Position numbers and translations under genes: made by a program. Source: a candidate division WOR-3 bacterium (GTDB taxonomy: Bacteria; Hydrothermota; Tepidihabitantia; Tepidihabitantales; Tepidihabitantaceae). Taken from it: a stretch of DNA of 64,000 nt. The notes beneath the pieces are model-generated. The model was given only the letters and a program-made list of their open reading frames with translations. It was not told the DNA's origin and did no database searches. How positions within the stretch are numbered: the first letter of the stretch is position 1; every line of letters begins with the position of its first letter. Shown here piece by piece: positions 17,116 to 35,292 of this stretch. The stretch is from positions 44,090 to 108,089 of the forward strand of contig CBFGIT010000009.1 of NCBI GenBank assembly GCA_965648905.1. Direction: 5' to 3'.

Positions 17116-17748
17116 GTGAAAGCCAAGTCAGAAGAGAAGCGTCGGGCCCTGCTTGAGGCGGCGTTCGCCGAGGTCTCGGAACACGGCTACTTCGAGACCA
17201 CGGTCGACGACATCGCCCGGCGGGCCGGTGTGGCCAAGGGCACGCTGTACCTGTACTTCCGAGACAAGCCCGACATCTACATCGGCCTCGTGGGCTGGCT
17301 GTTGGAACAGGCGCTGGCCGTGCTCCGTACGACCGCGGCCCGCCCGATTCCAGCGCGGCAGAAGCTGGTCGAGGTCTTCGAGTCCTGGAGTCATACCGTG
17401 CTCTCGCAGCCGGCTGTCTCCGGACTGCTTTCGGTCGACAGCCTCGAAGCCACATCGCGCATGAAGGAACGGGTCATGCACGATGTCGTCCCACGCGTCC
17501 AGGAGATGGTGGATGAAATCGCAAAGATTATCGAGCAGGGAATGAGAGACGGTGAGTTCCGCCGGGTCGACGCACGGCTGGCCGCACTCACTTACCTGAG
17601 CGGGTTTCGTTCGACGATGTTTGTTGTTGCGCATCAGTGGCCGGTTCAGAACCCGGCCCGGAAGGCGCAGGAGCTTTTCTTTGAGGGTATTCTGGCCCGC
17701 TCCGGGACAGAACGCCCGGTCGGTTCACGCAAGAAGGAGACACAGTAA
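17116..17748 (+). CDS. TetR/AcrR family regulator
   Basis: GYFETTVDDIARRAGVAKGTLYLYFRDK HTH. Confidence 0.92.
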   Translation: MKAKSEEKRRALLEAAFAEVSEHGYFETTVDDIARRAGVAKGTLYLYFRDKPDIYIGLVGWLLEQALAVLRTTAARPIPARQKLVEVFESWSHTVLSQPAVSGLLSVDSLEATSRMKERVMHDVVPRVQEMVDEIAKIIEQGMRDGEFRRVDARLAALTYLSGFRSTMFVVAHQWPVQNPARKAQELFFEGILARSGTERPVGSRKKETQ

Positions 17749-19124
17749 TGAGGTTTGCTCCAGAGGTCGCGATGGTGCTGCTGCTGGCCGCGGTTGGCCG
17801 CGCCGATACGCTGCACCTGAATGCTGACCGTGCGGTTGAGCTCGCCCTGACCAACAACCGTACCTTACAACTGGCCCGGGAGAAAGTGGTCGAAGCCGCG
17901 GCCGGCCGTGACGCCGCGTTCGGCTCATTCCTGCCCCAGGTCTCGGCCACCGGCACCTACACGCGGCTGGGCAATGTCAGCGAGTTTGCCATGGGGTCGC
18001 CGGTGATGGGTAAGTTCCCCATCCCGGTTCGCGACCTTCAAGGCAACATTATCGGGTTCACCGATTCCATCCCGATGATTTCGGGCTACCGATTCGATAC
18101 GATGCAGTTGGGCAGCGCGAACAACTACGCTTTGACCGGCACGGTTCAACAGACAGTTTTCACCTGGGGCAAGCTGATCAACGCCTATCGCATTGCCGGA
18201 CTAAGCCTTGACATGCAGAAGGCGGCCGCTGCCCAGGCGCAGGCCCAGGTGCGCGTGGACGCAACCCAGGCATTTTACCAGGCCCTGCTTGCCCGCAAGA
18301 CCGCAGCGGTGATGACCGACGCCTGCCGCCAGCTTGAACGGCATGTCGGCCAGGTACAGGCACTCTACGACAACGGCCTGGCCGCAAGGCTCGACGTGAT
18401 GAAGGCGACGCTCGGGTTGCAGCAGATGAAGGCCCAGCTTTCTCAGATTGAGAACGGCGCCGAGCTCGCCCTAGCTGCGCTGCTGAACGTCCTAGGCGTG
18501 CCGACCGAGACCCCGGTCGTGCTCGACGAGGACTTGCCGGCTGAGACAACGTTGGTTGAGCTGGCACCAGTGGTCGATTCGGCACTGGCACAACGACCAG
18601 AGCTTGCCCAGTTGCGCGACGCGGTACGGATGGCCGACCTTGCCGAGCGCATCGCCCGCACCGCCAACCTGCCGAACGTCTTCGTTCAGGCCAACGGCAG
18701 CTACCGCAAGCCGGTGGGATTCAGCGACGAATGGGGAAAGGACTGGAACGCGACCGTCGGAGTCTCAATGCCGCTGTTCACCGGTGGAGCCAATCTGAGC
18801 AAGCTGAAGCAGGCCCAGTCACGGAGACGGCAGGCCCAGGTTGGGTTGGCTCTGGCCGAAGAAGGAATCAGACTCGAAGTCCAGGCACAGGTCGCGGCAC
18901 TGAACCAGGAAGCAAAGAACATCAGCTATCAGGCCAGGAACGTCGAAGTTGCCGACGAAGCCCTGAAGCTGGCCGAGACCCGCTATCAGAACGGCTTACT
19001 CACGAATCTTGAGTACATGGACACGCAGTTGGCTCTGACCCAGGCGCGGGTCTCGTACCTGAGCGCGCTGGCCAACTACCAGATTGCCAAAGCCAGACTG
19101 CGCAAGGCTAGCGGAGCGAACTGA
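17748..19124 (+). CDS. TolC family outer membrane efflux protein
   Basis: Signal peptide; ALTNN, LPxV and YxNG duplicated OEP repeats. Confidence 0.9.
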   Translation: MRFAPEVAMVLLLAAVGRADTLHLNADRAVELALTNNRTLQLAREKVVEAAAGRDAAFGSFLPQVSATGTYTRLGNVSEFAMGSPVMGKFPIPVRDLQGNIIGFTDSIPMISGYRFDTMQLGSANNYALTGTVQQTVFTWGKLINAYRIAGLSLDMQKAAAAQAQAQVRVDATQAFYQALLARKTAAVMTDACRQLERHVGQVQALYDNGLAARLDVMKATLGLQQMKAQLSQIENGAELALAALLNVLGVPTETPVVLDEDLPAETTLVELAPVVDSALAQRPELAQLRDAVRMADLAERIARTANLPNVFVQANGSYRKPVGFSDEWGKDWNATVGVSMPLFTGGANLSKLKQAQSRRRQAQVGLALAEEGIRLEVQAQVAALNQEAKNISYQARNVEVADEALKLAETRYQNGLLTNLEYMDTQLALTQARVSYLSALANYQIAKARLRKASGAN

Positions 19125-19131
19125 GGAAGAA

Positions 19132-20046
19132 ATGAACTACGATAAGAGAACATCGGAGACGAACACAGCTACTTTCAGCAGACTGACAGTCCTGGTAGCG
19201 TTGTTGGCGGTCGTTGCCGGTTGCGGGCCGCGGCGGGAAGCACGCGCCCGGTCGCTGCAGACCGTTGCCTACGAGACTGTGAAGCAACAGACCATGACCC
19301 GGACGGTCAAACTTCTCGGCACGGTCCAGGGCGAACAGCAGGCAACCGCCTTGTCGAAGATTGCCGGTCGAGTGACCGAAGTGGTCAAGCCCGAGGGGTC
19401 GTACGTGAATGAGGGCGAGCCGATTGCCTTTGTAGTAAACGATGTCCCGGGCATGGACTACAAGCCTGGGCCGGTGACTGCGCCGGTGTCAGGTTATGTT
19501 GGTAAGGTGTACGTTGAACCGGGCCAGTCGGTCGGACCGGGCGTACCGGTCGCAACTGTCGCCAGTTACACTGACCGGGTGCGCGTCAGAGTGAACGCGA
19601 GTGACCAGGACCTGCGGTTCATCCGTCCGGGTGCACGGGGTGAAGTGAGCGTCGCCGCTTTCCCGGACACACTCTTCATCGGTACGGTAAGCAGGATTAC
19701 GCCGGTCCTCGACCAGGTCTCCCGCACCGCAACGGTCGAGCTGAGCGTCGACAACCGTCGCCGGCAACTGCTGCCGGGCATGGCGTGTGCAGTTCGGCTG
19801 GTACTGGAGCAACGCGACTCGGCTCTCGTCGTTCCCCTGACCGCCCTGTTCACCAACGGCCTTTCCAAGATCGCGGTACTCGATGGGAACAGAGCTCGGT
19901 TCCGGGAGATTCGGGTCGGTCTGGTCGGCGACCGCTCGGCCGAGGTCATCTCCGGCGTTGCGCCGGGCGAGAAGGTAATTACCACCGGCAAGGAGCGCAT
20001 CAAGGACGGCGATGAAGTGAAGCCGGTGGAGTCGGACAAACAATGA
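19132..20046 (+). CDS. RND efflux membrane fusion protein (lipoprotein)
   Basis: Lipobox VAGC; APVSG lipoyl-like half motifs; LLPGM. Confidence 0.88.
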   Translation: MNYDKRTSETNTATFSRLTVLVALLAVVAGCGPRREARARSLQTVAYETVKQQTMTRTVKLLGTVQGEQQATALSKIAGRVTEVVKPEGSYVNEGEPIAFVVNDVPGMDYKPGPVTAPVSGYVGKVYVEPGQSVGPGVPVATVASYTDRVRVRVNASDQDLRFIRPGARGEVSVAAFPDTLFIGTVSRITPVLDQVSRTATVELSVDNRRRQLLPGMACAVRLVLEQRDSALVVPLTALFTNGLSKIAVLDGNRARFREIRVGLVGDRSAEVISGVAPGEKVITTGKERIKDGDEVKPVESDKQ

Positions 20047-23000
20047 AGCTCACCGATTCCGCGATTCGCCGGCCGGTAACGACTGCGATGGTCGTGCTCG
20101 CCTTGGTCGTATTCGGCATCATCAGCGTCACCCGGATGCAGGTAGACTTCTACCCTGACGTCACCTTCCCGATGGTAGTTGTGGCCACGCTCTATCCCGG
20201 GGCCGGGCCGCTCGAGGTCGAATCCGAAGTCACCGACCCGATGGAAGAAAGGCTGGGCACGATTGCCGGCTTGACCGACATCACCTCCCGTTCGACCGAG
20301 AACGTCTCGGCCATCACCCTGATGTTCGACTGGGGCACGAACCTCGACGCGGCCGCGTCCGATATCCGCGACCGGCTCGACATGGTCCAGGCCTCTCTGC
20401 CGGAAGGAGCGCAGAAACCGTTTGTCTTCAAGTTCGACCCTTCGATGATGCCGGTGCTGAACATGGCGCTGTCGGGCAGCATCGACGAGGCAGAGCTGGC
20501 CGACATCGCCGAGGATGTTGCCCAGCAGCTCCAGCGTGTACCCGGAGTTGCTGCGGCCAATTTCGGCGGCCAGTTGACCAAACAGGTACACATCGAACTT
20601 GACCTGCGCGAGCTGGCAGCAAGCGGCGTCACCACCGAGCAGCTCGCCGGAGCACTCAAGGCCCAGAACCTCAACTTCCCGATCGGCTCGGTCTCTACCG
20701 AAGAGCAACGGTTCCTTATCCGTCTGGTCGGTCAGTACGACGACCTCGATGGCATCCGCAACACTGTGGTCGGCGCCCGCCGGGATGGTACGCCGGTGCT
20801 TGTCCGCCAGATCGCCGACGTCCGATGGGCACCAATGGAGCGCACGGCGATGGTCCGGATGGACGGCGCGAACGCCATCTACCTCTGGATTCAGCGCCGG
20901 CCCGATGCCAATACGATTCAGGTCTCCGACGCCTTGCAAAAGGAGATTGAACGCATTCGGCAGAACCTGCCGCCGGCGGTCGACCTGAAGGTTTTCTGGG
21001 ACAGTGCCCAGCCGGTAAGGAACTCGGTCAAGAGCGTCGCCACCAACCTTGTCCTGGGCGGCATCCTCGCCTCGCTCGTGCTGTTTCTTTTCCTGCGCCG
21101 GTTCCGGGCCACGATGTTCGTCGCGTTCGCGATTCCGGTCTCGGTCTTCTTTGCTCTGCTCGGCATGTACCTCTCCGGGTTCACTCTCAACGTTCTATCC
21201 ATGGCCGGACTGGCGATTGCGGTCGGCATGGTTGTCGACAACGGCATCGTGGTGTTTGAGAATATCTTCCGTCGTCGCGAGCACGGCGAAGAACCCTTCA
21301 GCGCGGCCAGCCAGGGGACGACGACGGTTGCGATGGCGATTACTGCTTCCACCCTGACGACGATCGCGGTCTTTCTACCCCTGTTGATGCTGCGCGGTAT
21401 CCTCCAGGTCTTTTTCAAAGAGCTGGCCTTTGCCATTATCTTCGCGCTTCTGGCTTCGCTCGGCATCGCGCTCACCCTTATCCCGATGCTTGCCAGCCGA
21501 TTCCTGAAGATGCCTGCGCCCGGCTCCCAGGAAAAGGGTCTGCGCGGGTGGAGCGAGCGTCTCTACAAGAACATCGAGAACAGCTACAGCCGCCTTATCG
21601 GCTGGGCCATCTGCCGCCGCAAACTCATCATCGTGGCGACGGTCCTGGTGCTTATCGCCAGCCTCGGCCTAATCCCGATTCTCGGCACTGAGTTCATGCC
21701 TAAACAGTTCACTCAGTTCTCAGAAATCCAGGCCGAGATGCCGGTTGGGACCAGCCTGGAGAAAACGAACGAAGCGCTTGCGCGGATTGAGCGGTATGTC
21801 GTCGACAAGTGGGGAGGTGAGCTGAACGCGGTCCTCGTCCAGGTCGGGGGTGGTTCGAGCGTGTTCTCGGCGATTTTCGGCGGCGCGCGCGCGAGCAGCG
21901 GTGAGGTCAGTATGGTGGTGAAGCGCGGGTCAAAGTATTCAGCCCTTGAAATCGAGAACGACATCCGGCAGTTCGCCAGCTCGATTCCGGGGATGAGAAT
22001 CCGGTCTCGCACCGAACCCGGGGTTGCCCGGGTGATGGGCGGCGGCGCTGCGCTCCAGGTCGAGATCATCGGCCACGACATCGAAGTCGCCGACTCGCTC
22101 ACCCGCCTGGTCATCGCTGCGGTCGAGACTCTACCCGGGGTGGTCGACGTCAAAGCAAGCCGGGAAGAAGGCGACCCGGAAATCCAGTTACTCGTGGATC
22201 GGGAGAAAGCTGCGCTCTACGGCCTGACGCCCTACCAGGTCGGCAGCGCACTCCGAACCCAACTGGAAGGCAACGTTGCCACCCGCTACCGGCTGGGCGG
22301 CAGGGAGTATGACATCATCGTCCGGCTCAGAAAAGACCAGCGCACCGAGGTCAGTGACATCCTCGCGACGTCAGTTAACAGCCCTACCGGCCCGGTGCTG
22401 CTCAAGAACTTAGTCGTCACGCGGCCGGGAACTAGCCCGCTGACCATCGAGCACAAGAACACCGAGCGCATCGTCAAGGTCGAAGGCAATGTCATCGGCC
22501 AGGCCGCGGGTCGGGTCGGCGGGCTTGCCAAACAGGCCGTATCGAAAATCGTTTCGCCGCCCGGGTTCACCATCAAGGTTGCCGGCTCGTTCGAAGACAT
22601 GATGAAGTCATTCCGTGACCTGGGCTTTGCTGCGCTGCTTGCCATTCTGCTCGTGTTCATGGTCATGGCCGCGCAGTTCGAGAGCTTCCGCGACCCGTTC
22701 GTTATCCTGTTCACGATTCCCTTTGCGCTCATCGGCGTAGTCTGGGCCCTGGCCCTTACCGGCACAACGCTCTCAATCGTCTCTGGTGTTGGCGTGCTCG
22801 TCCTGGTCGGCGTCGTCGTGAACAACGGGATTGTCTATGTCGACTATGTCAACCAGTTGCGGCGCAACCAGGGCATGGGGCTCGAAGAAGCGGTGTGCGA
22901 AGGCGGCCGAGTCCGGCTCCGGCCGATTCTGATGACCGCGTTCACGACGATTTTCGGGTTGCTGCCCCTGGCCTTGCAGATTGGCGAAGGCTCGGAGTTC

Positions 23001-23144
23001 TGGTCGCCGCTGGGCCGGGCCGTTATCGGTGGCATGGTCGTGTCGACATTCCTGACCCTGATCTTCATCCCGGTGCTCTACACCTCGTTCGAAAGAGGTG
23101 CTGAGCGCCGCCGCCAGGCCCGGGCTGGCCGAACCGTCGAATAG
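20043..23144 (+). CDS. RND efflux permease (AcrB/MdtC family)
   Basis: RRPV start, VGMVVDNGIVV, RLRPILMT; 1033 aa. Confidence 0.93.
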   Translation: MKLTDSAIRRPVTTAMVVLALVVFGIISVTRMQVDFYPDVTFPMVVVATLYPGAGPLEVESEVTDPMEERLGTIAGLTDITSRSTENVSAITLMFDWGTNLDAAASDIRDRLDMVQASLPEGAQKPFVFKFDPSMMPVLNMALSGSIDEAELADIAEDVAQQLQRVPGVAAANFGGQLTKQVHIELDLRELAASGVTTEQLAGALKAQNLNFPIGSVSTEEQRFLIRLVGQYDDLDGIRNTVVGARRDGTPVLVRQIADVRWAPMERTAMVRMDGANAIYLWIQRRPDANTIQVSDALQKEIERIRQNLPPAVDLKVFWDSAQPVRNSVKSVATNLVLGGILASLVLFLFLRRFRATMFVAFAIPVSVFFALLGMYLSGFTLNVLSMAGLAIAVGMVVDNGIVVFENIFRRREHGEEPFSAASQGTTTVAMAITASTLTTIAVFLPLLMLRGILQVFFKELAFAIIFALLASLGIALTLIPMLASRFLKMPAPGSQEKGLRGWSERLYKNIENSYSRLIGWAICRRKLIIVATVLVLIASLGLIPILGTEFMPKQFTQFSEIQAEMPVGTSLEKTNEALARIERYVVDKWGGELNAVLVQVGGGSSVFSAIFGGARASSGEVSMVVKRGSKYSALEIENDIRQFASSIPGMRIRSRTEPGVARVMGGGAALQVEIIGHDIEVADSLTRLVIAAVETLPGVVDVKASREEGDPEIQLLVDREKAALYGLTPYQVGSALRTQLEGNVATRYRLGGREYDIIVRLRKDQRTEVSDILATSVNSPTGPVLLKNLVVTRPGTSPLTIEHKNTERIVKVEGNVIGQAAGRVGGLAKQAVSKIVSPPGFTIKVAGSFEDMMKSFRDLGFAALLAILLVFMVMAAQFESFRDPFVILFTIPFALIGVVWALALTGTTLSIVSGVGVLVLVGVVVNNGIVYVDYVNQLRRNQGMGLEEAVCEGGRVRLRPILMTAFTTIFGLLPLALQIGEGSEFWSPLGRAVIGGMVVSTFLTLIFIPVLYTSFERGAERRRQARAGRTVE

Positions 23145-23206: not shown

Positions 23207-24913
23207 CTAGGCGTACGCCGGCAGCGTCAGCCTGACCCAGTCGTCGTCATGATACCCGAACAGGCTCGTCATCGTCTGGTCGGTCAGATTGCAGAGCGTG
23301 ACGCTGCCCTCGACCACCGGGTTATCACCGTAGTATGCCTTGTGCTTACCCTTCGGTGACAGGAAGTTTATCAGTTCCCGCGCCTTAGTTTCGTCGATGC
23401 TGCCGTAGGCAGCAAGGCACTGGCTGACAAGTTCGTCGTAGCGCCAGAGGATATCAGCCATCTTAGTTGTGCCGACGATATTGGTCCATTCCCTCATCGC
23501 GCAGAGTCGCATCTCGGGCACAAGCGCGTGGTTGCCGACAACAACAAGGTCCGGCCTGGCTTCGCGCTGCGGGGCAAAGAAGTAGCTCTGGTTCGGCCCG
23601 CTCTTCCAGTCCGGGTTCAGATACCCGCGCTCGCCGAACTGGGCCGGGTCATACGTGTACCCCATCTTCTGAAACAGACGCTGGTTGTACTGCTGATACT
23701 CGACCGGGTACTGCCAGTCGGTTCCGCGCACGAACAGGCCACGGCGCGAGGGCTGGAAAGGCCCGGTCGGCAAGAGCGGCCTGAGCCAGGCCGGTGGGTA
23801 AGAAAGGTAGTCCAGGTTGTCGGTCGTCATGCCGCTTTCGACAATCATCGCCCGATTGTCCTTGCCGTCAGCCAGCGGGTAAATCCATGACGCACCGCGC
23901 TGAGCCGCGACCATTGCATCAACCGCCTTGTCGGCGCCGTGGCCGGCCCCGGCTGCATGGCGCACCATCAGAAGCGAATTGAGCCCGGGCCGGAGCGGGT
24001 TGCAGTTGGCTGACGGCAGCATGTCCACACCGATGCCGACACCGGCGCGGTTCATGGCGGTCACGCTGCCGACAAACCCGGGCGCGGTCTGACTGACCAG
24101 CGGCAAAGCCGGTCGGCCGTCGTCCAGGGTGTAGCTCGGGTTGTAGACCACCAGACCGGCCGTGTCCTGGAACACTCCGGCCGCAGGAAACTGGAAGTCG
24201 CGCCCGAAGTAGCATTTCCGGTCTCGGGTCGCGTTGCCGAACGCGGCGAAAGCATTACACGCCAGGGGCACGCGAAAGAACTCCGGCTTCAAACTGGGCA
24301 AGAACGACTTGGCCAGAGGAATCAACCATTTGTACTTTGCCAGAAACGCGAACTTGCCGCCGAGCCGGTCGAGAATCGGCTCAATCCGCTCGTGCAGCCC
24401 GAGTCCGGTGTAGATTGCCGCGACCAGTGCATCCACGCCGACGTTCAGAGTCAAGAGGTTCTCATAGGTCACGGTCGTATTCGGGTCTTGCGCCTTGCAC
24501 CCGGCCACCAGTCCGAGCATCTCCTGCTTCAGCGGCTCAGGAATGTCGTTCGGGTGAGCAGCGTACACACCCTGGCACCAGACCTTGACGATGTAGAGAA
24601 GAATCTGGAACGCGAGCTGCCGGCTCAGGCCGGCAAGTTCCGGCGCGATGAACGCCGGAATGACATTGTTGACGTAGTCGACCGTCATCCGTCGCACATC
24701 CTTCTCGGCCAACAGCCCGAGCAGGTAGCCCATCTGGTATCCGCTGCCTTCGACATAGTACGCCCGCTTCGGGACGCCGGTTCGGCTGTTCCGCGCGGTC
24801 CGGTGCTCGGCAAGCATCCCCCGCATGTTCTGAAAGGTCACGGCCTGTTTGACCTCAAAGCCATCAGCGGCAAAGGCCTGGGTCAGTTGCGCCGTGGTCT
24901 TGACATTCATCAT
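23207..24913 (-). CDS. C45-family/Ntn-hydrolase-like peptidase
   Basis: GSGYQMGYLLG, EMLGLVAG, internal ACNAFAAFG nucleophile, GRDFQF, MNRAGVGI. Confidence 0.7.
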   Translation of the reverse strand: MMNVKTTAQLTQAFAADGFEVKQAVTFQNMRGMLAEHRTARNSRTGVPKRAYYVEGSGYQMGYLLGLLAEKDVRRMTVDYVNNVIPAFIAPELAGLSRQLAFQILLYIVKVWCQGVYAAHPNDIPEPLKQEMLGLVAGCKAQDPNTTVTYENLLTLNVGVDALVAAIYTGLGLHERIEPILDRLGGKFAFLAKYKWLIPLAKSFLPSLKPEFFRVPLACNAFAAFGNATRDRKCYFGRDFQFPAAGVFQDTAGLVVYNPSYTLDDGRPALPLVSQTAPGFVGSVTAMNRAGVGIGVDMLPSANCNPLRPGLNSLLMVRHAAGAGHGADKAVDAMVAAQRGASWIYPLADGKDNRAMIVESGMTTDNLDYLSYPPAWLRPLLPTGPFQPSRRGLFVRGTDWQYPVEYQQYNQRLFQKMGYTYDPAQFGERGYLNPDWKSGPNQSYFFAPQREARPDLVVVGNHALVPEMRLCAMREWTNIVGTTKMADILWRYDELVSQCLAAYGSIDETKARELINFLSPKGKHKAYYGDNPVVEGSVTLCNLTDQTMTSLFGYHDDDWVRLTLPAYA

Positions 24914-24939: not shown

Positions 24940-27120
24940 CTATCTGATTCTGACGATTCTCGTGCAGCGCTCCTGCCCGCGGGCGAGCGTGAGCCGCACA
25001 AAGTAAACACCCGGCCCAAGGCGCGAAACGTCGTTCTCACCCGACGCAAGCGTCAGCACCCGACGGCCGGAAATGTCAAGCAGAACGCCCTTCGCCTCCC
25101 GCCCTTCGCCGCTCGCATCGAGCAAGAGCACGTTACGCACGATGCCCGGCCCGATTGCCGGAGTGGGAGCAATCTCGGTTCCGGATTGGGCGAGACCGGT
25201 CACAAACTGCCAGCCAAAGCACGCGCTGTTCGTGGTTCCGGCAACAAGGAACGGGCCGCCCCGCTCGGCAAACCCGACCAGCGTAACCGAACGGCCCTCA
25301 AGACCAGAGTTCATACTGGTCCAGCTTGCGCCCCGGTCGCGCGAAATCATGACCCCAAAGTCACCACCGGTAACAACCGTGTCCTCTCCGCCCGGATAGA
25401 AAACGACCGACCTGCTGCCTGAAGTTCCGGTCAGAACTGTCCAGCTCGTGCCGCCATTGGTCGTAAGAAAGATACCGGCTCCAGTCGCGGCCAGGACCCG
25501 GTCCGGGTCGAGCGGGTGAACCGCAAGGCTCTGGACCGTGCCGCCCGGCGACCCGGCAGTGCGATTCCACGTTGCACCGAAGTCGGTCGAGCGATACACC
25601 GCGCCCGCATTCGAAACCTCGCCCCCGGCATAGATTATGCTCCGCTCGGACGGCGCAACTGCCAGAGAGTAGCAGTATCCTGACGCCGTACCGGAGAGAA
25701 CGTGTCTGGTCCAGGTTGCGCCCGAGTTGCGCGAACGCGACACCACGAACGACCAGTTGGTCTGGGTAATCGGCCCTTTGCCCCCGGTCAGGATGATATG
25801 CGCTGAATCCGGATGGACGATGCAGCAGCCGCCATCGTCGTAGTAAGAGTCTTTCTGTTCCCAGACGGCCCCGCCGTCTGTGCTCAAAAAGAGCTCGGCT
25901 GAACCTCAGCCGCGGCCCTCAAGCGCCCAGACCATATCCTCAGAAGGCCCGCGTGCCAGCCCGATGCCGCAGATATTGCCGCAGGAAAGAAAGTAGGAAC
26001 AACTCTGCCAGCTCGCGCCGGCGTCGAGCGTCCGATACACTCCTGCCCCTTCAGCCGCAACATAGACCCGGGTTCGGTCCCAGTCTGCCACGCTCATTGC
26101 CGCAATCGCCGCGGTCCGGATGCCGGAGCTGGCCTGGGCCCAGTGCTGACCGCAGTCGGTCGAGAACATCATCCCGGACGCAGTCGCACACCAGACCCCG
26201 TTGTCAAGTCCCCGGTCGGCAACAATCGCACCCAGACGTGCCGAAGGCTGAACCGGTGCAGTCGTCTGCCAGGTCAAACCGGTGTCGGTCGAATAGTAGC
26301 AGACCGGCTCAGCCTCATAGCCATAGGCATACGCCTTGGCCGGGTCAGCCGGACTGAAGTCAACGCTCATCACCGACTGGGCCGTGCCGGCTCGGTGCCA
26401 TGACTCACCGGCATCGGTCGAGCGAAACAGACCATAGATGCCGCAGCAGAGCAGCACCCGCGAATCGGCGCAGTTGGCCGCGATGCCGAACAACAAGTCG
26501 TCCGGTGACAGACCGTTCGACCGCTCGTGCCAGGTCTGTCCGGCATCAGTCGAACGGAAAACCGTGCCGTAATCGCCGGCAAGATAGATTACCCCCGAGT
26601 CAAGCGGACTCGGTGCGATACCGTAGATGCTGCCGGTATCATCCTTGACCAGCCGGCCCGACCAGGTCGCGCCGTGGTCGGTTGAGACAGCAAACCAGGG
26701 CCGGCTCATAGTGTCGTAGTACATCCCGGCCGCGTACGCGCGGCCCGGCACAAACTGGTCCCACGCCGCAGCCGACGCATAGAACGGCAGACCGACCTGA
26801 CGCCAGCTCGCGCCATGGTCGGTTGAACGCTGAATGAAAGTATTGCCGGTCGGTCCGAGAATCGTGTTCGGCAGAAAAGGGTCAATAACCAGACTCATTG
26901 CCCCATCGCGGCTCAGAAAGCCGGCCAGCGACCAGTTTGTACCGTGGTCGGTCGTGCGATAGACCCCGAACGAGTCAGTTGAGTTAACCAGACAATAGAG
27001 CGTATCTGGTCGAACCGGGTCCAGACCCAGGGCGGAAACATAACCGCCGTCCGGGCCGATTGGCTGCCATTCGGCACGAACCACGGTGAAAAGGACCAGC
27101 AGCAGAACGACTCTCTTCAT
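24940..27120 (-). CDS. secreted BNR/YCF48-like beta-propeller protein with T9SS-like tail; in-frame UGA at 25906-25908 (putative selenocysteine)
   Basis: ORFs 25906-27201 and 24940-25887 are in the same frame; the SxDxGxTW repeats continue across ...ALEGRG*GSAELFLSTDGG...; AAGGAG RBS before MKRVVLLL. Confidence 0.7.
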
Positions 27121-27177
27121 CTTTGCTCCTTTGAGGACACAACAGTCTACTGTCAAGTATCCGGTGATGTCAAACCG

Positions 27178-27438
27178 TGTGGCGCGCTGCGCGCAGGTCA
27201 AAAGTCAAACTGCAAAGTGCAAAGGTCAAAGTGTCGGACAGCCCGACATTCTGACTTCTGCATTCTGCAATCTGCCTTCTGCCTTCGCGCCGTCAGGCGC
27301 GGCAAATCCCTTTTTCATCAGGACGAGGACTGTGGCGCGCTGCGCGCGCAGGTCAAAGGTCAAGTCGTCGGACAGCCCGACATTCTGACTTCTGCATTCT
27401 GCAATCTGCCTTCTGCCTTCGCGCCGTCAGGCGCGGCA
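27178..27438. repeat. tandem REP-like hairpin repeat with heptamer arms (2 copies)
   Basis: Identical 72-bp cores at 27233-27304 and 27367-27438; GTCAAAR/TGCAAAG heptamers oppose TTCTGMH heptamers. Confidence 0.85.
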
Positions 27439-27976: not shown

Positions 27977-28119
27977 CGTGCTCTTGGTGAGCTTGGTGGT
28001 TAGGTTCCGGACAATAGAGTCGAAATGCCCGGACCGCCCCACGCTTTGATCTTCAACTTCTGCACTTTGACCTTTGCCCTTTTCCCACTTCCCGTGCTCT
28101 TGGTGAGCTTGGTGGTTAG
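27977..28119. repeat. 27-bp direct repeat made of 9-nt units
   Basis: CGTGCTCTTGGTGAGCTTGGTGGTTAG at 27977-28003 and 28093-28119. Confidence 0.8.
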
Positions 28120-28208: not shown

Positions 28209-29540
28209 TTGTTCGCCCTGGTCGCACTGACCAGGGCCGGGTTTCTTGCTCCGCCGTATCTTCAGAATCTCACCGACAGCTCGGTGGTTGTGCGCTGGGT
28301 AACCGCGAGCGCAGAGTCAGGCCGGGTCGATTACGGACTGACGAGCGGCTATGGTCTGAGCGTGGCTCAGCCAGGGCCGTCTCTCGACCACGAGCTTGAA
28401 CTGCCCGGGCTCGAACCGGACACGGTCTACCATTACCGTGTGCGGTCCGGGCCGGATTCAACTTCGGATGCTCTGTTCCCGAGTGCGGTGCGTGACCGGC
28501 CGGGTTTCCGCCTGCTGGTCTGTGGCGACACGCACGGTGACAGTGCCGCGAACCAGGCGGTGGTCAACCGGATGGAGCAGGTCGAACCCCGCCCCGGCCT
28601 GTTCATTCACACCGGCGATGTCAGCGCGGCCGGACAGGCGGCTCAGCTCTGCGCGTTCTTCAGACAGGAACGGAACATCCTGAACCGGACATGTCTTTTC
28701 CCGGCAATCGGCAACCACGATGCCGACAGCATGAACAACTGGTACCGTTTCTTTGCCCTGCCGGGCAACGAGCGCTACTACTCCTTTCGTTGCGGGAGTG
28801 TCTCTTGCTACATGCTGAATTCCTACGAGTCGGTCGGCCCGGGCACAAGTCAGTACGAATGGCTGCTCGCCGGGCTCAGGCAGGACAGTGCCAATCCGTC
28901 AGTCCGGCACATCATGGTCGTGCTGCACACGCCGCCCTATACGACCAACACGAGCTACTCAGGCAACGCCGAGGTCCGGCAGTACCTCTGTCCGCTGTTT
29001 GAGCGGTTCCGGGTTGCCGTCGTCTTCTGCGGTCATGTTCATGCCTACGAGCACAGCCTTGTGAACGGCGTGCACTACATCACGACCGGCGGCGGCGGTG
29101 CGTCGCTCTCGCGGAACTGGAACTCGGCCCAGCCTTACACCGTGTTTCGCGAGGCGAGCTACGGATTCGTGCTCGTGGACGTGTACGGCGACACCTTGCG
29201 CACGCGCGGGGTCAGGCTCGACGGAACCGAATACGACCCGCTGGTGATTGTCGCCGGCACGGTCGGAACAACCGAGGACTGTCCGACGTTCCGCACCGGC
29301 AGTCAACTGCGGCCAACCGGCCGGGCCGGAGTCAGGTTCAGCCTGAAAGAACCCGGGCTGGTCCGTGCCGCGCTGTTCGACGTCTCAGGCCGGAAGCGTG
29401 CTTCGACCCCGGCCCGGATGCTCGGCCCGGGTGAGCATGTGCTCACTTGGGACACAGCCCGGCTTGCGGCCGGAGTCTACGTCTGTCTGATTCAGGCCGG
29501 AGAGGAGTCCCTGACGGTGCGGCTCGCCATCGCCCGCTGA
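28209..29540 (+). CDS. secreted purple acid phosphatase-like metallophosphoesterase with FN3 and C-terminal sorting domain
   Basis: GDTH, HTGD, GNHD, GHVHAYE motifs; FDVSGR...GVY tail; start codon uncertain. Confidence 0.85.
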   Translation: MFALVALTRAGFLAPPYLQNLTDSSVVVRWVTASAESGRVDYGLTSGYGLSVAQPGPSLDHELELPGLEPDTVYHYRVRSGPDSTSDALFPSAVRDRPGFRLLVCGDTHGDSAANQAVVNRMEQVEPRPGLFIHTGDVSAAGQAAQLCAFFRQERNILNRTCLFPAIGNHDADSMNNWYRFFALPGNERYYSFRCGSVSCYMLNSYESVGPGTSQYEWLLAGLRQDSANPSVRHIMVVLHTPPYTTNTSYSGNAEVRQYLCPLFERFRVAVVFCGHVHAYEHSLVNGVHYITTGGGGASLSRNWNSAQPYTVFREASYGFVLVDVYGDTLRTRGVRLDGTEYDPLVIVAGTVGTTEDCPTFRTGSQLRPTGRAGVRFSLKEPGLVRAALFDVSGRKRASTPARMLGPGEHVLTWDTARLAAGVYVCLIQAGEESLTVRLAIAR

Positions 29541-29810: not shown

Positions 29811-32800
29811 ATGAACAGGACCGTAATTCTGCTAGTGGGTTTGACGACTGCGCTCTTCGCGCAGGTTGACACGACGCGCGTGGACACTGCGTGGGTCAGA
29901 AGCTGGCCCCGGAGCGGCAACGACAATGACTATCTGGTGGACATGGTGCTAGATTCGTCCGGCACCGTCTACGCCACTGGTCACCACTATGACAACTCCC
30001 AGATTGTCACCTTGAGCTACAACTCCGCGGGCACGCGGCGATGGGTGCAGACCTTCGACAGTATGCCCACCGGAGAGGATATCGCCAACGCGATAGCTAT
30101 TGACCGTCGGACCGGCAGCGTATACGTCACCGGCAAGACCTACAGTCCTGTCCATACCAGTAAGGATCTTCTGCTGGTCAAATACAGCAACGACGGCGTG
30201 CGGCAGTGGGCGGTGCTGCATGACAACATCACAGGCGACGATGAGGGCTACGACGTCGAGGTCGACCAGTCTGGGTACATCTACATCGCCGGTGGCCTGG
30301 GCTGCAACAGACCAGACCTGGAGTGGAGGATGGATGGCGGGGTCGTGAAGTACGACTCGATGGGGAATTTGGTTTGGGCTCGACACCACGAAGCACCGTT
30401 TGCCGGCTTCTTCTACGGGCTTGTGCTCGACGCGAACTCGAACATCTACGTCTGCGGTATCGCCACACAACGCGGTTATCAAGAAGTACAACGCCAACGG
30501 TGACTCGCTCTGGTGCCAGGTCTACGATGGTGGGTACGGTGACGACTTGTTCAACAACATCAAGTTCGACCGGGCCGGCAACCTGCTCGTCACCGGTGCC
30601 AGCGTGGGCAGTGGGTCGGGCTTCGATATCGTGACCGCGAAGTACGACACTGCGGGCAACCGACTATGGCTCACGCGCTGGAACGGGTCGGCAAGCACCG
30701 AGGATTGGCCCTACGGTATGGCGGTGGACTCGGACAACAACGTCATCGTCGCCGGCTACTACAACAACGGGGCAGGCTGGGTGATACTGAAGTACGACTC
30801 CGGCGGCACACGCAAGTGGGACCGGTACCCATCAAGCAATACGGCTCGGGCCGTTGCGGTTGACCTCGCTGGCAACATCTATGCGACCGGGTCCACCTGG
30901 CGCCCCTACTACGGCTGGGAGGTACTGACTCTGAAATACACGGCTTCGGGCGTACCGGTCTGGCGTCACACCTACAACGCGGCTGGCAATGGCGGCGACG
31001 GCGGTAGGGCGATTGCGGTGGACAACTCAGGCTTCGTCTACGTTGCCGGAGTAGACGTACCGGACAACCGCGCTGACTGCGTAGTCCTGAAGTACGTGCA
31101 GAAGACCGACGTCGAGCTGAAGCGACTGCTTGCGCCGCTGGGACGCATCGCGCCCGGAACGGTCGTGACGCCTGCCTGTTCGGTGAGTAACAACGGCGGT
31201 TCGGCCGTGACCTATCAGGTGCGGATGCGGATAGGCTCGTCTTATGACCAGACCGTGACCGTAACGGCGCAGCCGCCGATTTCAACCCGGCGGGTGACGT
31301 TCCCGAACTGGACCGCAAACCCGCCCGGGAGCTGGGCAGTAAGCTGCAGCACGGTGCTCGCTGCGGACTACAACCACGCCAATGATAAGGCCACCGGCCG
31401 CGTTGCGGTGGCCAGCGGGTCCGGCCCGGCAGTGACCGAGGTTTGGCCGGACAATGGCGGCAACAATGGCTCGATACAGGTCGGCATCGCGGGCGAGAAC
31501 TTCGACCCGGACACTCGGGGCTGCGTTGAAGTACGCCTGCGCAAGTCTGGGGTTCCGGACCTCTCGTTTGTCGCGGCCGTGGTCAACAGCCGCTATGCCG
31601 TTGGCACACTGAACCTGCGCGATGCCGAGACCGGGCTCTATGACCTGGTGCTGCGGGATGGAACCGGCGATTCAACTGTCGCCAACAGCGCGTTCTTGGT
31701 TCAGTCGGTGAGACGCAGCGCGGTCTGTCAGGTCGTCGGGCAGCCCACAATACGTCGGGGCCGGGTGGTGACCTACCGCCTGACGTTTGTAAACGCTGGG
31801 AACGTGGACTACGAAGACCCGTGCATGTTGCTGATATGCCCGGCGTTTCTCCATATCCTAGCGCTGACCGACGAAGCGGGCAACAACATATCATGGGACC
31901 GCCTGAATATCGGCAACAACCTCGCCAATGGCCTTGCGAACTATCCGCAGTTCTGGCAGGGCGCAGACTCCGGACTCTGCACGCTGGCCCTGAAGCCGCC
32001 GGTGCTGACGCGGGGCAAGCTGCTGCGCGGGTGCAAGGTGATAGTCGACATGACAGTCGAGGCGGTGTTCGACGGCATCGGCTGGATTGGGTTCCGCGCG
32101 CTGGTGCGCGAGGCAGCAGCGCCGCCCAGCCCGGACGGCGGCACTACCGTGCTGCACGCCCTGCATCACCGGGCGTTCGGCAACGAACCGTGGTGCCCGC
32201 GCTCGAATGACTCGCTCGACGTGCTCTGGCGTCAGGCCTATGACGGCGCGGTCTGGATGATGGGTGATTCCACTTCGGTCATGATGCCGCCGAACCGCGG
32301 TGGCCGCGAGCCGGTCTCCGTACCACTCCGGCCGGCTTCGGACTTCATGGGTCAGTTCTACAGCCGACTGATGCAACCCGACTCCGGTCGTTTCCGGGGC
32401 TTCTTCAACGCCCATACCGGCGGCCGCGCTCTGCCCGGCAGGCCAGACCCGGTGACAGGAACCCGGCGGCAGGTCGAAGGCAATGGACTGCCCGCAATGG
32501 TGCCGCACTGGCCCATGACCAGCGCGTTCTACAACCTCGGACACCAGATGGTGCAGATTGCCAAAGAGCACTGCGACACGCTGCCCAACCCCGAGCTCGA
32601 CCTGGGCGAGGTCGTGCTGCTGCAGGACCCGCCCGGCGCAATCGAGCACATCGCCGTGGTCAGTTCGTGGGACCCCAACGACAAGTACGGTGCATCGGGC
32701 AGCGACACGCTGCGGCACTATGTGCCCGTGACCGAACGGCTGGACTACACGATTCACTTCGAGAACCTCGACTCGGCAACCGCGCCGGCCGAGACAGTGG

Positions 32801-35292
32801 TGGTAACAGACCAGATAGATTCGGACCTCAACTGGGAAACGCTCGTGCTCGACTCGGTGAGCCATCCGTTGGTCTGCCACGCGGTCGCGGACTCAAACAC
32901 CAACACCATCACGTGGCACTTCGACGACATCAATCTACCGCCGAACCGCAACCCACCTGAAGGCGAAGGCTGGGTCAAGTTCCATATCTGGCCCAAGTCG
33001 TGGCGCGCGTCCGGCACCGAGGTGAAGAACGCGGCGACCATAGTGTTTGACAATAACGCGCCGATGACGACCGACACGGTCTTGAACACGCTCGATGCCG
33101 GCTGGCCTTCGAGTTCGGTGCGGCCGATGCCCGACACCACCGCCAGCGCCCAAGTAACCGTCCGCTGGAACGGCAGCGACGAGGCCCAGGGTTCGGGCAT
33201 CGGGTACTACAACGTCTACGCCCGAACCGGCAGTACGCCCTGGCGCCTGGTCTTCGGCCCGACGCGGGACACAATGGGCCAGTTCACTGCCGAGAACGAA
33301 ACCCGCTACTACTTCTACTCGGTCGCGGTTGACCGGGTCGGCCATGTCGAGGCCGCCCCAAGCCTGCCCGACGACTCAACGTTTGTCATCGGCATCGCCC
33401 CACCGGTCCTCATCACGCCGCCGGACACGCTCTATGCGCCGGGCGGGGTGCTTGCCGACTCTACGCCCCAGTTTGTCTGGACATCGACCGCGGGCAATGA
33501 CGGCACCTATACGCTCCAGTACTCCGCAGACAGCGCCTTTGTCTCCGGCGTGGTGACACGCTCCGGTCTTGCTGCGACAACCTACACTGTGCCGGATACA
33601 TCTGCCCTGCGCGATACGACCTGGTTCTGGCGGGTAGAGGCAGTGGGCCCGCGCGGTGCGCACAGCGGCTATGCTGCCCCGCGGCGGTTCCGCGTCGACG
33701 TCCGGCCTCCGGCTGCGCCGCGACTGCTCTTACCCTCGGACGGCGCGGTCATTGACTCCACTTTCACATTCTACTGGTCCGCGATTCGGGGCGAAGCGGT
33801 CGACTACCTGCTCTGCTTCAGTGCCGACAGCATCTTCGACCCGAACATCAGCCACGGCGTCCGCACCGGCGACACCAGCTATCGGGTGCCGGACTGGGTC
33901 GCGTTCAACGATACAACCTACTACTGGGTCGTCCGCGCCCGGGACCGCGGCGGCAACTACAGCCCGCTTCAGGTACGTCCGTTCCGCTTCACCGTGGACC
34001 GCCAGCCGGCGATATCCGGCGTGGCACGGTACTATGCCGGCACGAATCCGCCAGTGCCGAACGCGAAGCTGGTCATGACCGGCGCACGCAATGACACCGT
34101 ACTCAGCGATGTGCGGGGCAGCTACGCTTTCACCGGTCTCACGCGCGGCCAGAACTACTCGACGCGGCCCGAACGGGTCAGCCCGTCGCGCGAGCCCGCG
34201 GTCTCCTCGTTCGATGCGGCCATGGCCCTGCAGCACTCGGTGCGGCGCGACACGCTTGACTCGCTCCAGTTCCGCGCTGCGGACGTAAGCGGCGACAGCA
34301 CGGTCTCGTCCTTTGACGCCGGGCTGATACTGCAGTACGCGGTCAGCCGCATCCGCCACTTCCCGGTCGGACGCCGGCCCGGGCTTGATACGGTCGACTG
34401 GGCGTTCCGCCCGCCGCTGCGCAGCTACAGCTCGCTGCCCGGACACCAGATCGGCCAGGACTTCCGCTCGATTCTGTACGGCGACCCGTCCGGCAACTGG
34501 CCCGCGGCCGAGTTCTTCTGCGCATGGGAGGACCCGTCCGCGGACAAACGCTTCTTCAGCGCCAACCTGCCCGACGAACAGACGGTGAGCCTGCCGGCCG
34601 GCGCAGTCAACGCACCCCCGGCCCTCAACGCCCAGGATGACGTCGATGCGCGAGGTGAAGTCGTGTTCCCGGTTGTTGTACCGGACGCACGCGGCGCGGT
34701 GTCGGCCGACATGCTGGTCCGCTACGATGCCGAGGCGCTGACTCTCACCGGTGTGCGTACGACCAAAGCAACAACCGGCTTCCTCGTTGCCGCGGTAGAG
34801 CAGAACGGCCTTGTCCGAGTAGGCATGGCCGGAACGTCTCCGCTCCGTGGTGAAGTGCCGCTCGTCGAGCTCCACTTCGCCGCACGCATCGTGGAGAACG
34901 AATACAACCGGGCGTCTCGCCCGACCGAGGTCATCTGGCTCGTTCTCGACGAAGGCCGACTGCCCGAGAGCGAATCCGAAGGCGCGATGGGTGGCAGGAG
35001 TCGGCTGCCGGCCGCCTTCTTCCTGAGTCAGCCGGTTCCCAATCCGTTCCAGCACGGCGCACGCATCAACTTCGGCCTGCCCCGCTCAGCACGGGTGCAA
35101 CTGGCGGTCTTTGATGCGGTCGGCCGTCAGGTTCGTACGCTCGCCTCAGGCCCGCGTGCAGCCGGCTATCACACGGTAACATGGGATGGCCGGGACCAGC
35201 GCGGCCGACAACTTGCCAACGGCGTCTACTTCGTGCGCCTGACCGCAGATAAACAGCGGTTCGGACGCCGCGTAACCCTGCTGCACCAGTAA
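29811..35292 (+). CDS. very large secreted protein (SBBP propeller, CARDB, IPT-like, DUF7619-like, FN3, dockerin-like, cohesin-like, FlgD-like); frameshift near 30465
   Basis: ORFs 29811-30503 and 30400-35292 join as NIYVCGIA/HNAVIKKYNANGDSLW; SWDPNDK motif; duplicated VSSFDA dockerin-like motif; PNPF...WDGRD...GVYF tail. Confidence 0.75.

Follow-up and report, generated by a model that had tools for sequence, protein, structure and literature searches.

We suggest that a single minus-strand gene at positions 27120..24940 of a 64,000-nucleotide (nt) stretch of DNA from a candidate division WOR-3 bacterium (contig CBFGIT010000009.1; the whole stretch is referred to as the window) encodes a protein containing selenocysteine (Sec). 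Judging from the sequence, we hold with high confidence that the gene product is a selenoprotein, and we consider it very likely that one gene accounts for a 726-residue exported selenoprotein in which Sec is inserted at UGA codon 405 via a downstream selenocysteine insertion sequence (SECIS). The gene very probably represents an undescribed, widespread selenoprotein family. What is new is the fold, the predicted location, the geometry of Cys and Sec, and a SECIS encoded within an Asp-box; Sec insertion itself would follow the known bacterial mechanism.

With the TGA read through, the gene comprises 726 codons followed by TAG (24942-24940) and contains one in-frame TGA. It starts with ATG at 27120-27118, with AAGGAG 7 nt upstream. 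The original prediction, made from the letters of the window and its open reading frames (ORFs), had pointed to two ORFs separated by a lone TGA, and the ORF list and the translation agree: ORFs 25906..27201 and 24940..25887, the latter TTG-initiated, are in one frame and their sole separator is the TGA at 25908..25906, i.e. codon 405, in the context VWALEGRG-U-GSAELFLSTDGGAVWEQK. The repeats said to continue past the stop do so, with eight Asp-boxes before and five after the TGA, and Sortilin-Vps10 and BNR/Asp-box repeats of Pfam are matched over the entire length of the protein. Similarly, the translation places the sole signal-peptide-like N-terminal segment (MKRVVLLLVLFTVVRA) in the upstream part, while the sole sorting-domain match (TIGR04183) is in the downstream part, though below its cut-off, and cysteines are found on both sides of the TGA (C374, C380 and C384 upstream, C432 and C433 downstream).

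In a six-frame search of 41 related genomes with the read-through protein as query, exactly one in-frame TGA is present in 43 of the 44 top rows (E ≤ 9.3e-74, 31-67% identity), and the lone exception spans residues 412-722 only and thus begins past the TGA site. We extracted 40 homologues, i.e. 20 loci from this search and 20 picked sequences (11 TGA-bearing paralogues and 9 TGA-less relatives). The resulting aligned set of 31 TGA-bearing homologues, out of the ~46 TGA-bearing rows listed, extends in full length across the TGA, which occupies one column in all 31 (MAFFT; 29-67% identity) and likewise in 85/85 distinct TGA-bearing members. The flanks are conserved as SCGNICGIG upstream and ALEG-x-G-U-G-x-AELF-x-STDGG-x-VW around and downstream of the TGA, and at the protein level few parts of the gene are as conserved as the codons directly past the TGA. 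The window's own genome has three such propeller genes. One homologue in a relative (G001:C27:4730-6865) contains three in-frame TAG codons in addition to the TGA and may be a decaying paralogue.

All nine TGA-less relatives have a gap at the TGA column and lack the flanking Cys. Among 15 distant full-length TGA-less homologues, two (P0139 and P0140) have Cys at the Sec column and the remaining 13 have L, Y, G, R, P, S, N or a gap; the upstream Cys motif is absent from the 15. The original prediction had argued that Trp, Arg or Gly at this position, with neither Cys nor TGA, would speak against Sec. For close relatives no such replacement is found; for distant TGA-less relatives the objection holds in part, in that the residues vary or the loop is missing. 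No full-length Cys form at ≥35% identity is present among the best 150 of 54,370 library matches, and Cys forms of the propeller family seem to exist at best marginally.

The machinery for Sec insertion, which the original prediction had proposed to look for, is present. The window genome (3.01 Mb, 99.6% complete) encodes selA, selB, two selD genes and tRNA-Sec (72 bits), all above curated cut-offs. A tRNA scan of the window gave 0 genes; tRNA-Sec is on another contig. Both selD genes (contig 4:87631-88554 and contig 8:88040-88942) have their own in-frame TGA at the known G-U-x-x-K site, and in two genes for exported Prx/TlpA-like UxxC selenoproteins (contig 21:22688-23032 and contig 3:95739-96077) an AGUUA loop follows the UGA at a distance of 17 nt. 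The gene for the formate dehydrogenase alpha subunit, fdhA, was not found in the window genome. Because the other selenoprotein genes found are the two selD and the two Prx/TlpA-like genes, with no fdhA found, the three propeller genes make up a large share of the selenoprotein genes detected. Among the relatives, selA was detected in 38/41, and the two same-family genomes without selA (G014 and G022) have no TGA-bearing homologue among the matches listed and no signature in the pattern scan described below.

The region past the TGA evolves as a coding sequence. In five informative pairs, dN/dS is 0.20-0.37 past the TGA versus 0.15-0.27 upstream, i.e. below 0.4 on both sides; of two further pairs, the sixth has just 22 downstream codons and the seventh is saturated upstream. 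The low downstream values therefore indicate that the second half is translated and selected as protein.

The RNA signal downstream of the UGA

The 60 nt past the UGA fold with -25 kcal/mol (z = -3.22), a value equalled by 2/200 shuffles; thus, the hairpin exceeds chance. In the 31 homologues, the 75 nt surrounding the TGA can be aligned gap-free, and the RNAalifold consensus contains two adjacent hairpins. The first, H1 (25882..25894, minus strand), has the sequence GCUC-UUUUU-GAGC and lies 12-24 nt past the UGA, and its four stem pairs are invariant in 31/31. The second, H2 (25862..25880, minus strand), is the candidate SECIS apical stem-loop, CAGACGGC-GGG-GCCGUCUG, formed from the Asp-box codons T-D-G-G-A-V-W. 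H2 corresponds to the hairpin at 25880..25862 with a GGG loop starting 33 nt after the UGA on which the original prediction had rested, and it is recovered as described there.

H2 is supported by covariation. In its stem GACGG/CCGUC, which encloses the loop C-G-G-N-N, a G-C pair is replaced by A-U in four sequences, an A-U pair by G-C or C-G in two and a C-G pair by U-A in one, so that three pairs have changed on both sides (seven cells). For instance, GAC..GUC becomes AGC..GCU or ACU..AGU, whereby Asp/Val is exchanged for Ser/Ala or Thr/Ser and pairing is retained. In the structure as named, 93.3% of cells are paired versus 27-46% with the partners slid. The covariation score was reached by 0/500 shuffles, an outcome that is not a probability because the sequences are related.

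Codon usage follows the same pattern. The stem codons are fixed (Glu GAG 27/27, Leu CTC 31/31, Ser AGC 31/31, Asp GAC 27/27, Gly GGC 29/30 and Val GTC 25/25), four synonyms are in use in loops and between stems, and the stretch after the TGA has the highest codon fixation in the gene (0.80-0.84 vs 0.60 elsewhere). The post-TGA Asp-box also stands out energetically, with -14.1 kcal/mol in the window gene versus -4.2 to -11.8 for the other 12 Asp-boxes, and with a family median local minimum free energy (MFE) of -11.5 (n = 31) versus -6.3 for other Asp-boxes (n = 352).

The bacterial SECIS model, as set out in the main text of a recent review (PMC13188914), has a loop of 3-9 nt, a stem of 4-16 bp, a spacing of 16-37 nt and an MFE ≤ -7.5 kcal/mol, with G in the first two loop positions and the common pattern N1-G-[G|U]-N-N2. 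H2 lies within all of these constraints, with an 8-bp stem, the loop GGG (or C-GGG-G), a distance of 33 nt from the UGA and -14.1 kcal/mol locally, so that the compatibility with the general model claimed earlier is upheld and extended by the covariation. Among 83 distinct family sequences, about two thirds of which were found by a pattern that fixes part of the hairpin, 80 have ≤ -7.5 kcal/mol and all 83 have G at loop positions 1-2. Three known selenoprotein genes of the genome (one selD and the two Prx/TlpA-like UxxC genes) served as internal SECIS controls; the selD SECIS has a 9-bp stem and its loop is likewise 33 nt after the UGA.

We propose, by analogy with Escherichia coli fdhF, that SelB with Sec-tRNA(Sec) would bind the stem-loop just past the UGA during translation and deliver Sec at codon 405. 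In this model, the stem-loop consists of the codons of the next Asp-box, in which the usual S-x-D-x-G-x-T-W reads S-T-D-G-G-x-V-W; GAC-GGC would pair with GCC-GUC around the GG-containing loop, and the small GCUC/GAGC hairpin would lie between the UGA and the SECIS stem-loop.

A divergent type of paralogue, represented by L046 (G005:C1:2893800-2896700) and G206:C259:4276-4323, has U-D-L in place of U-G-x, lacks the Cys of CGNIC and pairs poorly in H2; another possible pairing, GGUCG...CGACC, spans the region in this type.

Predicted fold, cysteine and selenocysteine site, and export

An AlphaFold2 model based on a 33-sequence alignment has a mean pLDDT of 89.5. Together with Foldseek matches and the Asp-boxes, it indicates two tandem propellers with approximate boundaries on the minus strand: a seven-bladed Asp-box propeller at ~residues 18-336 (26113..27069) and a second seven-bladed propeller at ~residues 337-640 (25201..26112), the second blade of which would contain the Cys/Sec site. 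The propellers are preceded by the signal-peptide-like N-terminus, residues 1-17 (27070..27120, MKRVVLLLVLFTVVRAE), which was read from the translation and is similar at the start of the homologues, and they are followed by a C-terminal beta-sandwich resembling the sorting domains of the type IX secretion system (T9SS) and FlgD-Ig domains (~residues 657-726; 24943..25152).

The UGA (25906..25908, minus strand) is between model strands 396-401 and 410-413 and hence in the C-terminal propeller, where it belongs to the B-C loop of blade two; the loop reads E401-G-R-G-U-G. In the same blade, Cys380 (codon 25981..25983) is just before and Cys384 at the start of strand A. Strand A of the following blade has Cys432 and Cys433 at its start. 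In propellers, the D-A and B-C loops are on one face and the Asp-boxes on the other. Because this usual topology puts the two kinds of loops on a shared face, the cysteines and Sec405 are predicted to be together on one face of the propeller. Among the 85 distinct TGA-bearing members, and with the fold-defining Gly and Trp excluded, the conserved residues are Cys380 (82/85), Glu401 (82/85), Gly404 (82/85), Sec405 (85/85), Gly406 (83/85) and Cys384 (66/85), while Cys432 and Cys433 are present in 22/85 each. By contrast, residue 380 is Ser or Ala in the nine TGA-less relatives. Cys380 and Sec405 thus appear as the recurrent pair of the TGA-bearing members.

What this pair does can be discussed only tentatively. 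Sec405 would be in a glycine-rich loop with Cys380 and Glu401 as near-invariant companions on the same "top" side, as the topology suggests, and Cys380 and Sec405 may form a selenenylsulfide or selenolate-thiolate centre, perhaps aided by Glu401. Such a centre could act as a redox-active catalytic site or as a pair of metal or chalcogen ligands in an extracellular protein of anaerobes. That a Cys380-Sec405 redox pair is the working part of the protein is a possibility that we rate below even chances. The wider picture of a large family of cell-surface or secreted double-propeller selenoenzymes, with a Cys380-Sec405 selenenylsulfide on the propeller face and extracellular redox or metal/chalcogen chemistry in anoxic habitats, is similarly speculative. 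A selenenylsulfide resists reduction better than a disulfide. An alternative role would, therefore, be that of a cross-link which withstands reduction in anoxic, sulfidic surroundings better than a disulfide.

Export would proceed by the Sec translocation pathway and then by the T9SS. The C-terminal TIGR04183 (NCBIfam) match covers residues 680-719 with 17.5 bits against a cut-off of 23 (E = 0.0029). The C-terminal segment is common to many other proteins of the window genome and its relatives, and some distant homologues carry FlgD_ig (PF13860). The genome has a gene for an SprA-like protein (456 bits summed) and two full-length PorU-like genes (357 and 354 bits, below the cut-off of 420). 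Because of the SprA-like translocon, the PorU-like genes and the shared C-terminal segment, surface display by type IX secretion is plausible. The protein also matches NF045728 (F510_1955 family glycosylhydrolase) with 206.8 bits against a cut-off of 175, summed from five partial stretches on a 246-position profile with residues 462-632 as the best stretch; this looks like repeat-level similarity rather than an equivalog.

The neighbouring genes comprise an RND efflux set, a phosphoesterase and other sorting-domain proteins, and the context gives no functional clue. On the same strand, an ORF of 568 residues at 23207-24913 (-) begins 27 nt past the selenoprotein gene's stop codon and may be co-transcribed with that gene; the ORF has no Pfam match at E ≤ 0.001. 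The efflux set at 17748-23144 (+) consists of an outer-membrane factor (OEP), a membrane-fusion protein (HlyD-type) and an AcrB-family pump. Two probable sorting-domain cargo proteins are encoded at 28209-29540 (+), a purple-acid-phosphatase-like metallophosphoesterase, and at 30400-35292 (+), a 1630-residue SBBP-repeat protein with DUF7619 and a C-terminal FlgD-Ig domain. Between the start of the selenoprotein gene and the divergent genes, the intergenic region 27174-27438 contains two direct-repeat copies of ~85-155 nt (27220-27304 / 27354-27438, 96% identical; also 27174-27208 / 27329-27363), with short inverted matches near 28051-28082.

Family distribution and alternative explanations

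To follow the family beyond the relatives, one genome per species was scanned with a DNA pattern composed of the TGA, the H1 arms, RGCGG and TGG. The scan gave 65 stretches with 70 matches, 67 of which are an in-frame TGA within homologues that align on both sides (24-67% identity); the other three are chance matches in Gluconobacter, Arthrobacter and one Chloroflexia-labelled metagenome-assembled genome (MAG). True matches are mostly in MAGs titled "bacterium" and, by record title, also in Candidatus Stahlbacteria, Bacteroidota, Ignavibacteriota and Fibrobacteraceae. Thus, the original proposal to look for a conserved TGA in homologues finds it in frame in 67/70 pattern matches in addition to the 31/31 aligned sequences. 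In the window's phylum, 66/272 sampled genomes have the signature and all belong to the window's class, distributed over the families f1 (38/43), f2 (2/2), f9 (1/1), f12 (2/2), f13 (11/16) and f14 (11/31); in the other classes sampled in the phylum it was found in none, and a reversed-pattern control gave 0 everywhere. Members are often in tandem (L083, L101, L120, L122, L125 and contig JAZDJN010000087.1), with two signatures 2.2-4.3 kb apart and, on one contig, three within 11 kb, an arrangement that suggests local gene duplication. A search of sequencing runs for words of the sequence listed one DNA run with a 0.09 share and no RNA run.

The alternative that retains the most weight, improbable as it is, holds that the UGA is a programmed stop codon, or a leaky one that a near-cognate tRNA (Trp, Cys or Arg) decodes, and that the hairpins, instead of serving Sec insertion, promote readthrough or pausing, the gene giving rise to a short propeller and to some selenium-free full-length protein. 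The scarcity of Cys-form orthologues fits this explanation, and hairpins 3' of stop codons can indeed stimulate readthrough. Yet, the hairpin is within every constraint of the bacterial SECIS, and its spacing equals that of the genome's own selD SECIS. Neither the matches listed nor the pattern scan revealed the family in the two genomes of the same taxonomic family that have no selA, and the near-invariant Cys partner is as expected around Sec. Moreover, because the UGA splits one blade between strands B and C, a 404-residue product would be an incomplete fold.

It is less probable still that there are two genes with a conserved split, one for a secreted N-terminal propeller and the other for an independently translated C-terminal propeller with the sorting domain. 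Two pieces are indeed what gene callers and public databases annotate, and the TTG-initiated ORF 24940..25887 exists. A search of a library of 1.84 billion representatives gave 54,370 matches at E ≤ 0.001, because the query belongs to a very large Asp-box propeller superfamily. Within the best 150, the close matches are fragments, 11 of which end exactly at query residue 404 and 15 of which start at 408-443. A word-indexed search with region 340-470 gave 14 close matches with lengths of 399-408 residues that cover only the first half of the region. These 14 entries carry the name "hypothetical protein [candidate division WOR-3 bacterium]" or the name "photosystem II stability/assembly factor-like". 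Against two genes, the parts are always in the same frame with only the TGA between them (31/31 aligned; 67/70 pattern matches), protein-level conservation is particularly high right past the TGA, the second part would be without a signal peptide and the TGA interrupts a blade.

Finally, a recent nonsense pseudogene, a sequencing or assembly error, or the use of TGA as a sense codon (code 4 or 25) can be set aside as having next to no probability: a lone stop in an otherwise intact gene may resemble a fresh nonsense mutation when seen in one sequence, but dozens of independent assemblies from many genera carry the same TGA, which excludes the sequencing error that the original prediction had raised as an objection; the downstream region is under purifying selection (dN/dS 0.20-0.37); and TGA is an ordinary stop in this genome because it closes 478/1082 long open frames, for which reason an alternative code was rejected.

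Some observations nevertheless weigh against the Sec reading or parts of it. The Cys-form orthologue, a classical hallmark of a selenoprotein family, is nearly missing, and this is the weakest point of the classical argument. Two divergent paralogues (L046 and L047) pair poorly in H2. Because the GG of the loop and a large part of the stem also encode Gly, Asp and Val of a protein motif, selection on the protein accounts for some of the conservation at the nucleotide level. Also, the 67 members found by pattern are no independent evidence for the hairpin because they were selected by the hairpin sequence itself; they do support the in-frame TGA and its protein context. For the functional site, the proximity of Cys380 and Sec405 in three dimensions is deduced from strand order, and for export, the match of the T9SS tail and the PorU-like genes are below curated cut-offs.

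Comparison with known systems

If Sec is inserted as we suggest, the propeller selenoproteins may be one of the main reasons why the Sec machinery is kept in lineages such as this one, in which no formate dehydrogenase was found. The gene would, moreover, show with unusual clarity how an RNA signal can be placed inside a structural protein repeat, where it imposes co-variation on pairs of amino acids, and the dual coding of Asp-box and SECIS offers a clean natural test case for RNA versus protein constraint. A secreted and probably surface-anchored beta-propeller with Sec would widen where and how selenium serves, and the conserved Cys380/Glu401/Sec405 site represents a concrete biochemical target. 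Because public databases list the family only as two truncated fragments, the size of the selenoproteome and the selenium demand of these uncultured sediment and hot-spring lineages would be underestimated.

Most bacterial selenoproteins known so far are redox enzymes of the cytoplasm or periplasm and have thioredoxin-like folds. In agreement with the original statement that the protein is not among the classical selenoprotein families, no propeller, BNR or sortilin family is among the 119 prokaryotic selenoprotein families catalogued in 2026 (PMC13188914, Table 1). The terms BNR, propeller, sortilin, sialidase, secreted and T9SS are absent from the main text of that review, to which the word search was confined, the supplements lying outside it. 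Similarly, BNR, propeller, sortilin, sialidase, secreted and glycosyl are absent from the main texts of the BSepDB and deep-Sep papers, the supplements of which were outside the search and possibly list the family. A literature search for selenoproteins with BNR, beta-propeller or Asp-box and for selenocysteine with T9SS found no account of the family, and no selenoprotein model was matched in an NCBIfam scan of the protein.

The design of the gene is overall similar to that of bacterial genes with a SECIS inside the ORF, for which E. coli fdhF is the prototype: an in-frame UGA is directly followed by a stem-loop, and SelA, SelB, SelD and tRNA-Sec are encoded. The window loop, N1-G-G-N-N2, fits the pattern N1-G-[G|U]-N-N2 of the model in the main text of PMC13188914, as do the distance of 33 nt (16-37) and a stem of 5-8 bp. 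However, the predicted protein is a secreted double beta-propeller and neither a thioredoxin-fold protein nor a molybdopterin enzyme, its SECIS is built from the codons of a structural repeat in which D/V, S/A and T/S co-vary and keep the RNA pairs, a second invariant hairpin is located between the UGA and the SECIS stem, and Cys-form orthologues are almost absent.

By fold, the closest known proteins are the GH74 xyloglucanases, which make up the top 24 matches of Foldseek in the PDB (TM 0.58-0.61, 14-20% identity, E about 1e-25) and are matched in profile searches with E = 1e-41 to 1e-25. Like these enzymes (PDB 5fkq, 2ebs and 6p2o), the window protein is predicted to have two tandem seven-bladed Asp-box propellers and has a similar overall size. 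By contrast, identity is low, the propellers are ~100 residues shorter, and the protein has the Cys/Sec site, which is absent from GH74, and an added sorting-type C-terminal domain. In GH74 enzymes, each of the two propellers contributes one catalytic aspartate. When the protein is aligned locally to 6p2o and 5jwz with HMMER, the offset amounts to entire blades, which makes the register ambiguous for these aspartates.

Extracytoplasmic selenoproteins of other kinds are known (PMC13188914), i.e. the TonB-dependent receptor of the FCYXU type, the MtrB/PioB-like GSU2204, the ExtKL cytochrome, UshA-like proteins and DUF1573 proteins. They share with the window protein, as predicted here, a Sec outside the cytoplasm, often beside a Cys; none of them is a beta-propeller or Asp-box protein and none matched the window protein in the NCBIfam scan. 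The Prx/TlpA-like UxxC selenoproteins of the same genome provide the nearest comparison, in that they are likewise exported, combine Sec with a nearby Cys and have a SECIS hairpin with a G-containing loop. In these proteins, however, the distance from Sec to Cys is 3 residues, within a thioredoxin fold, and the loop AGUUA follows 17 nt after the UGA, whereas in the propeller Sec and Cys are 25 residues apart, in what the model suggests are two loops of one blade, and the loop follows 33 nt after the UGA.

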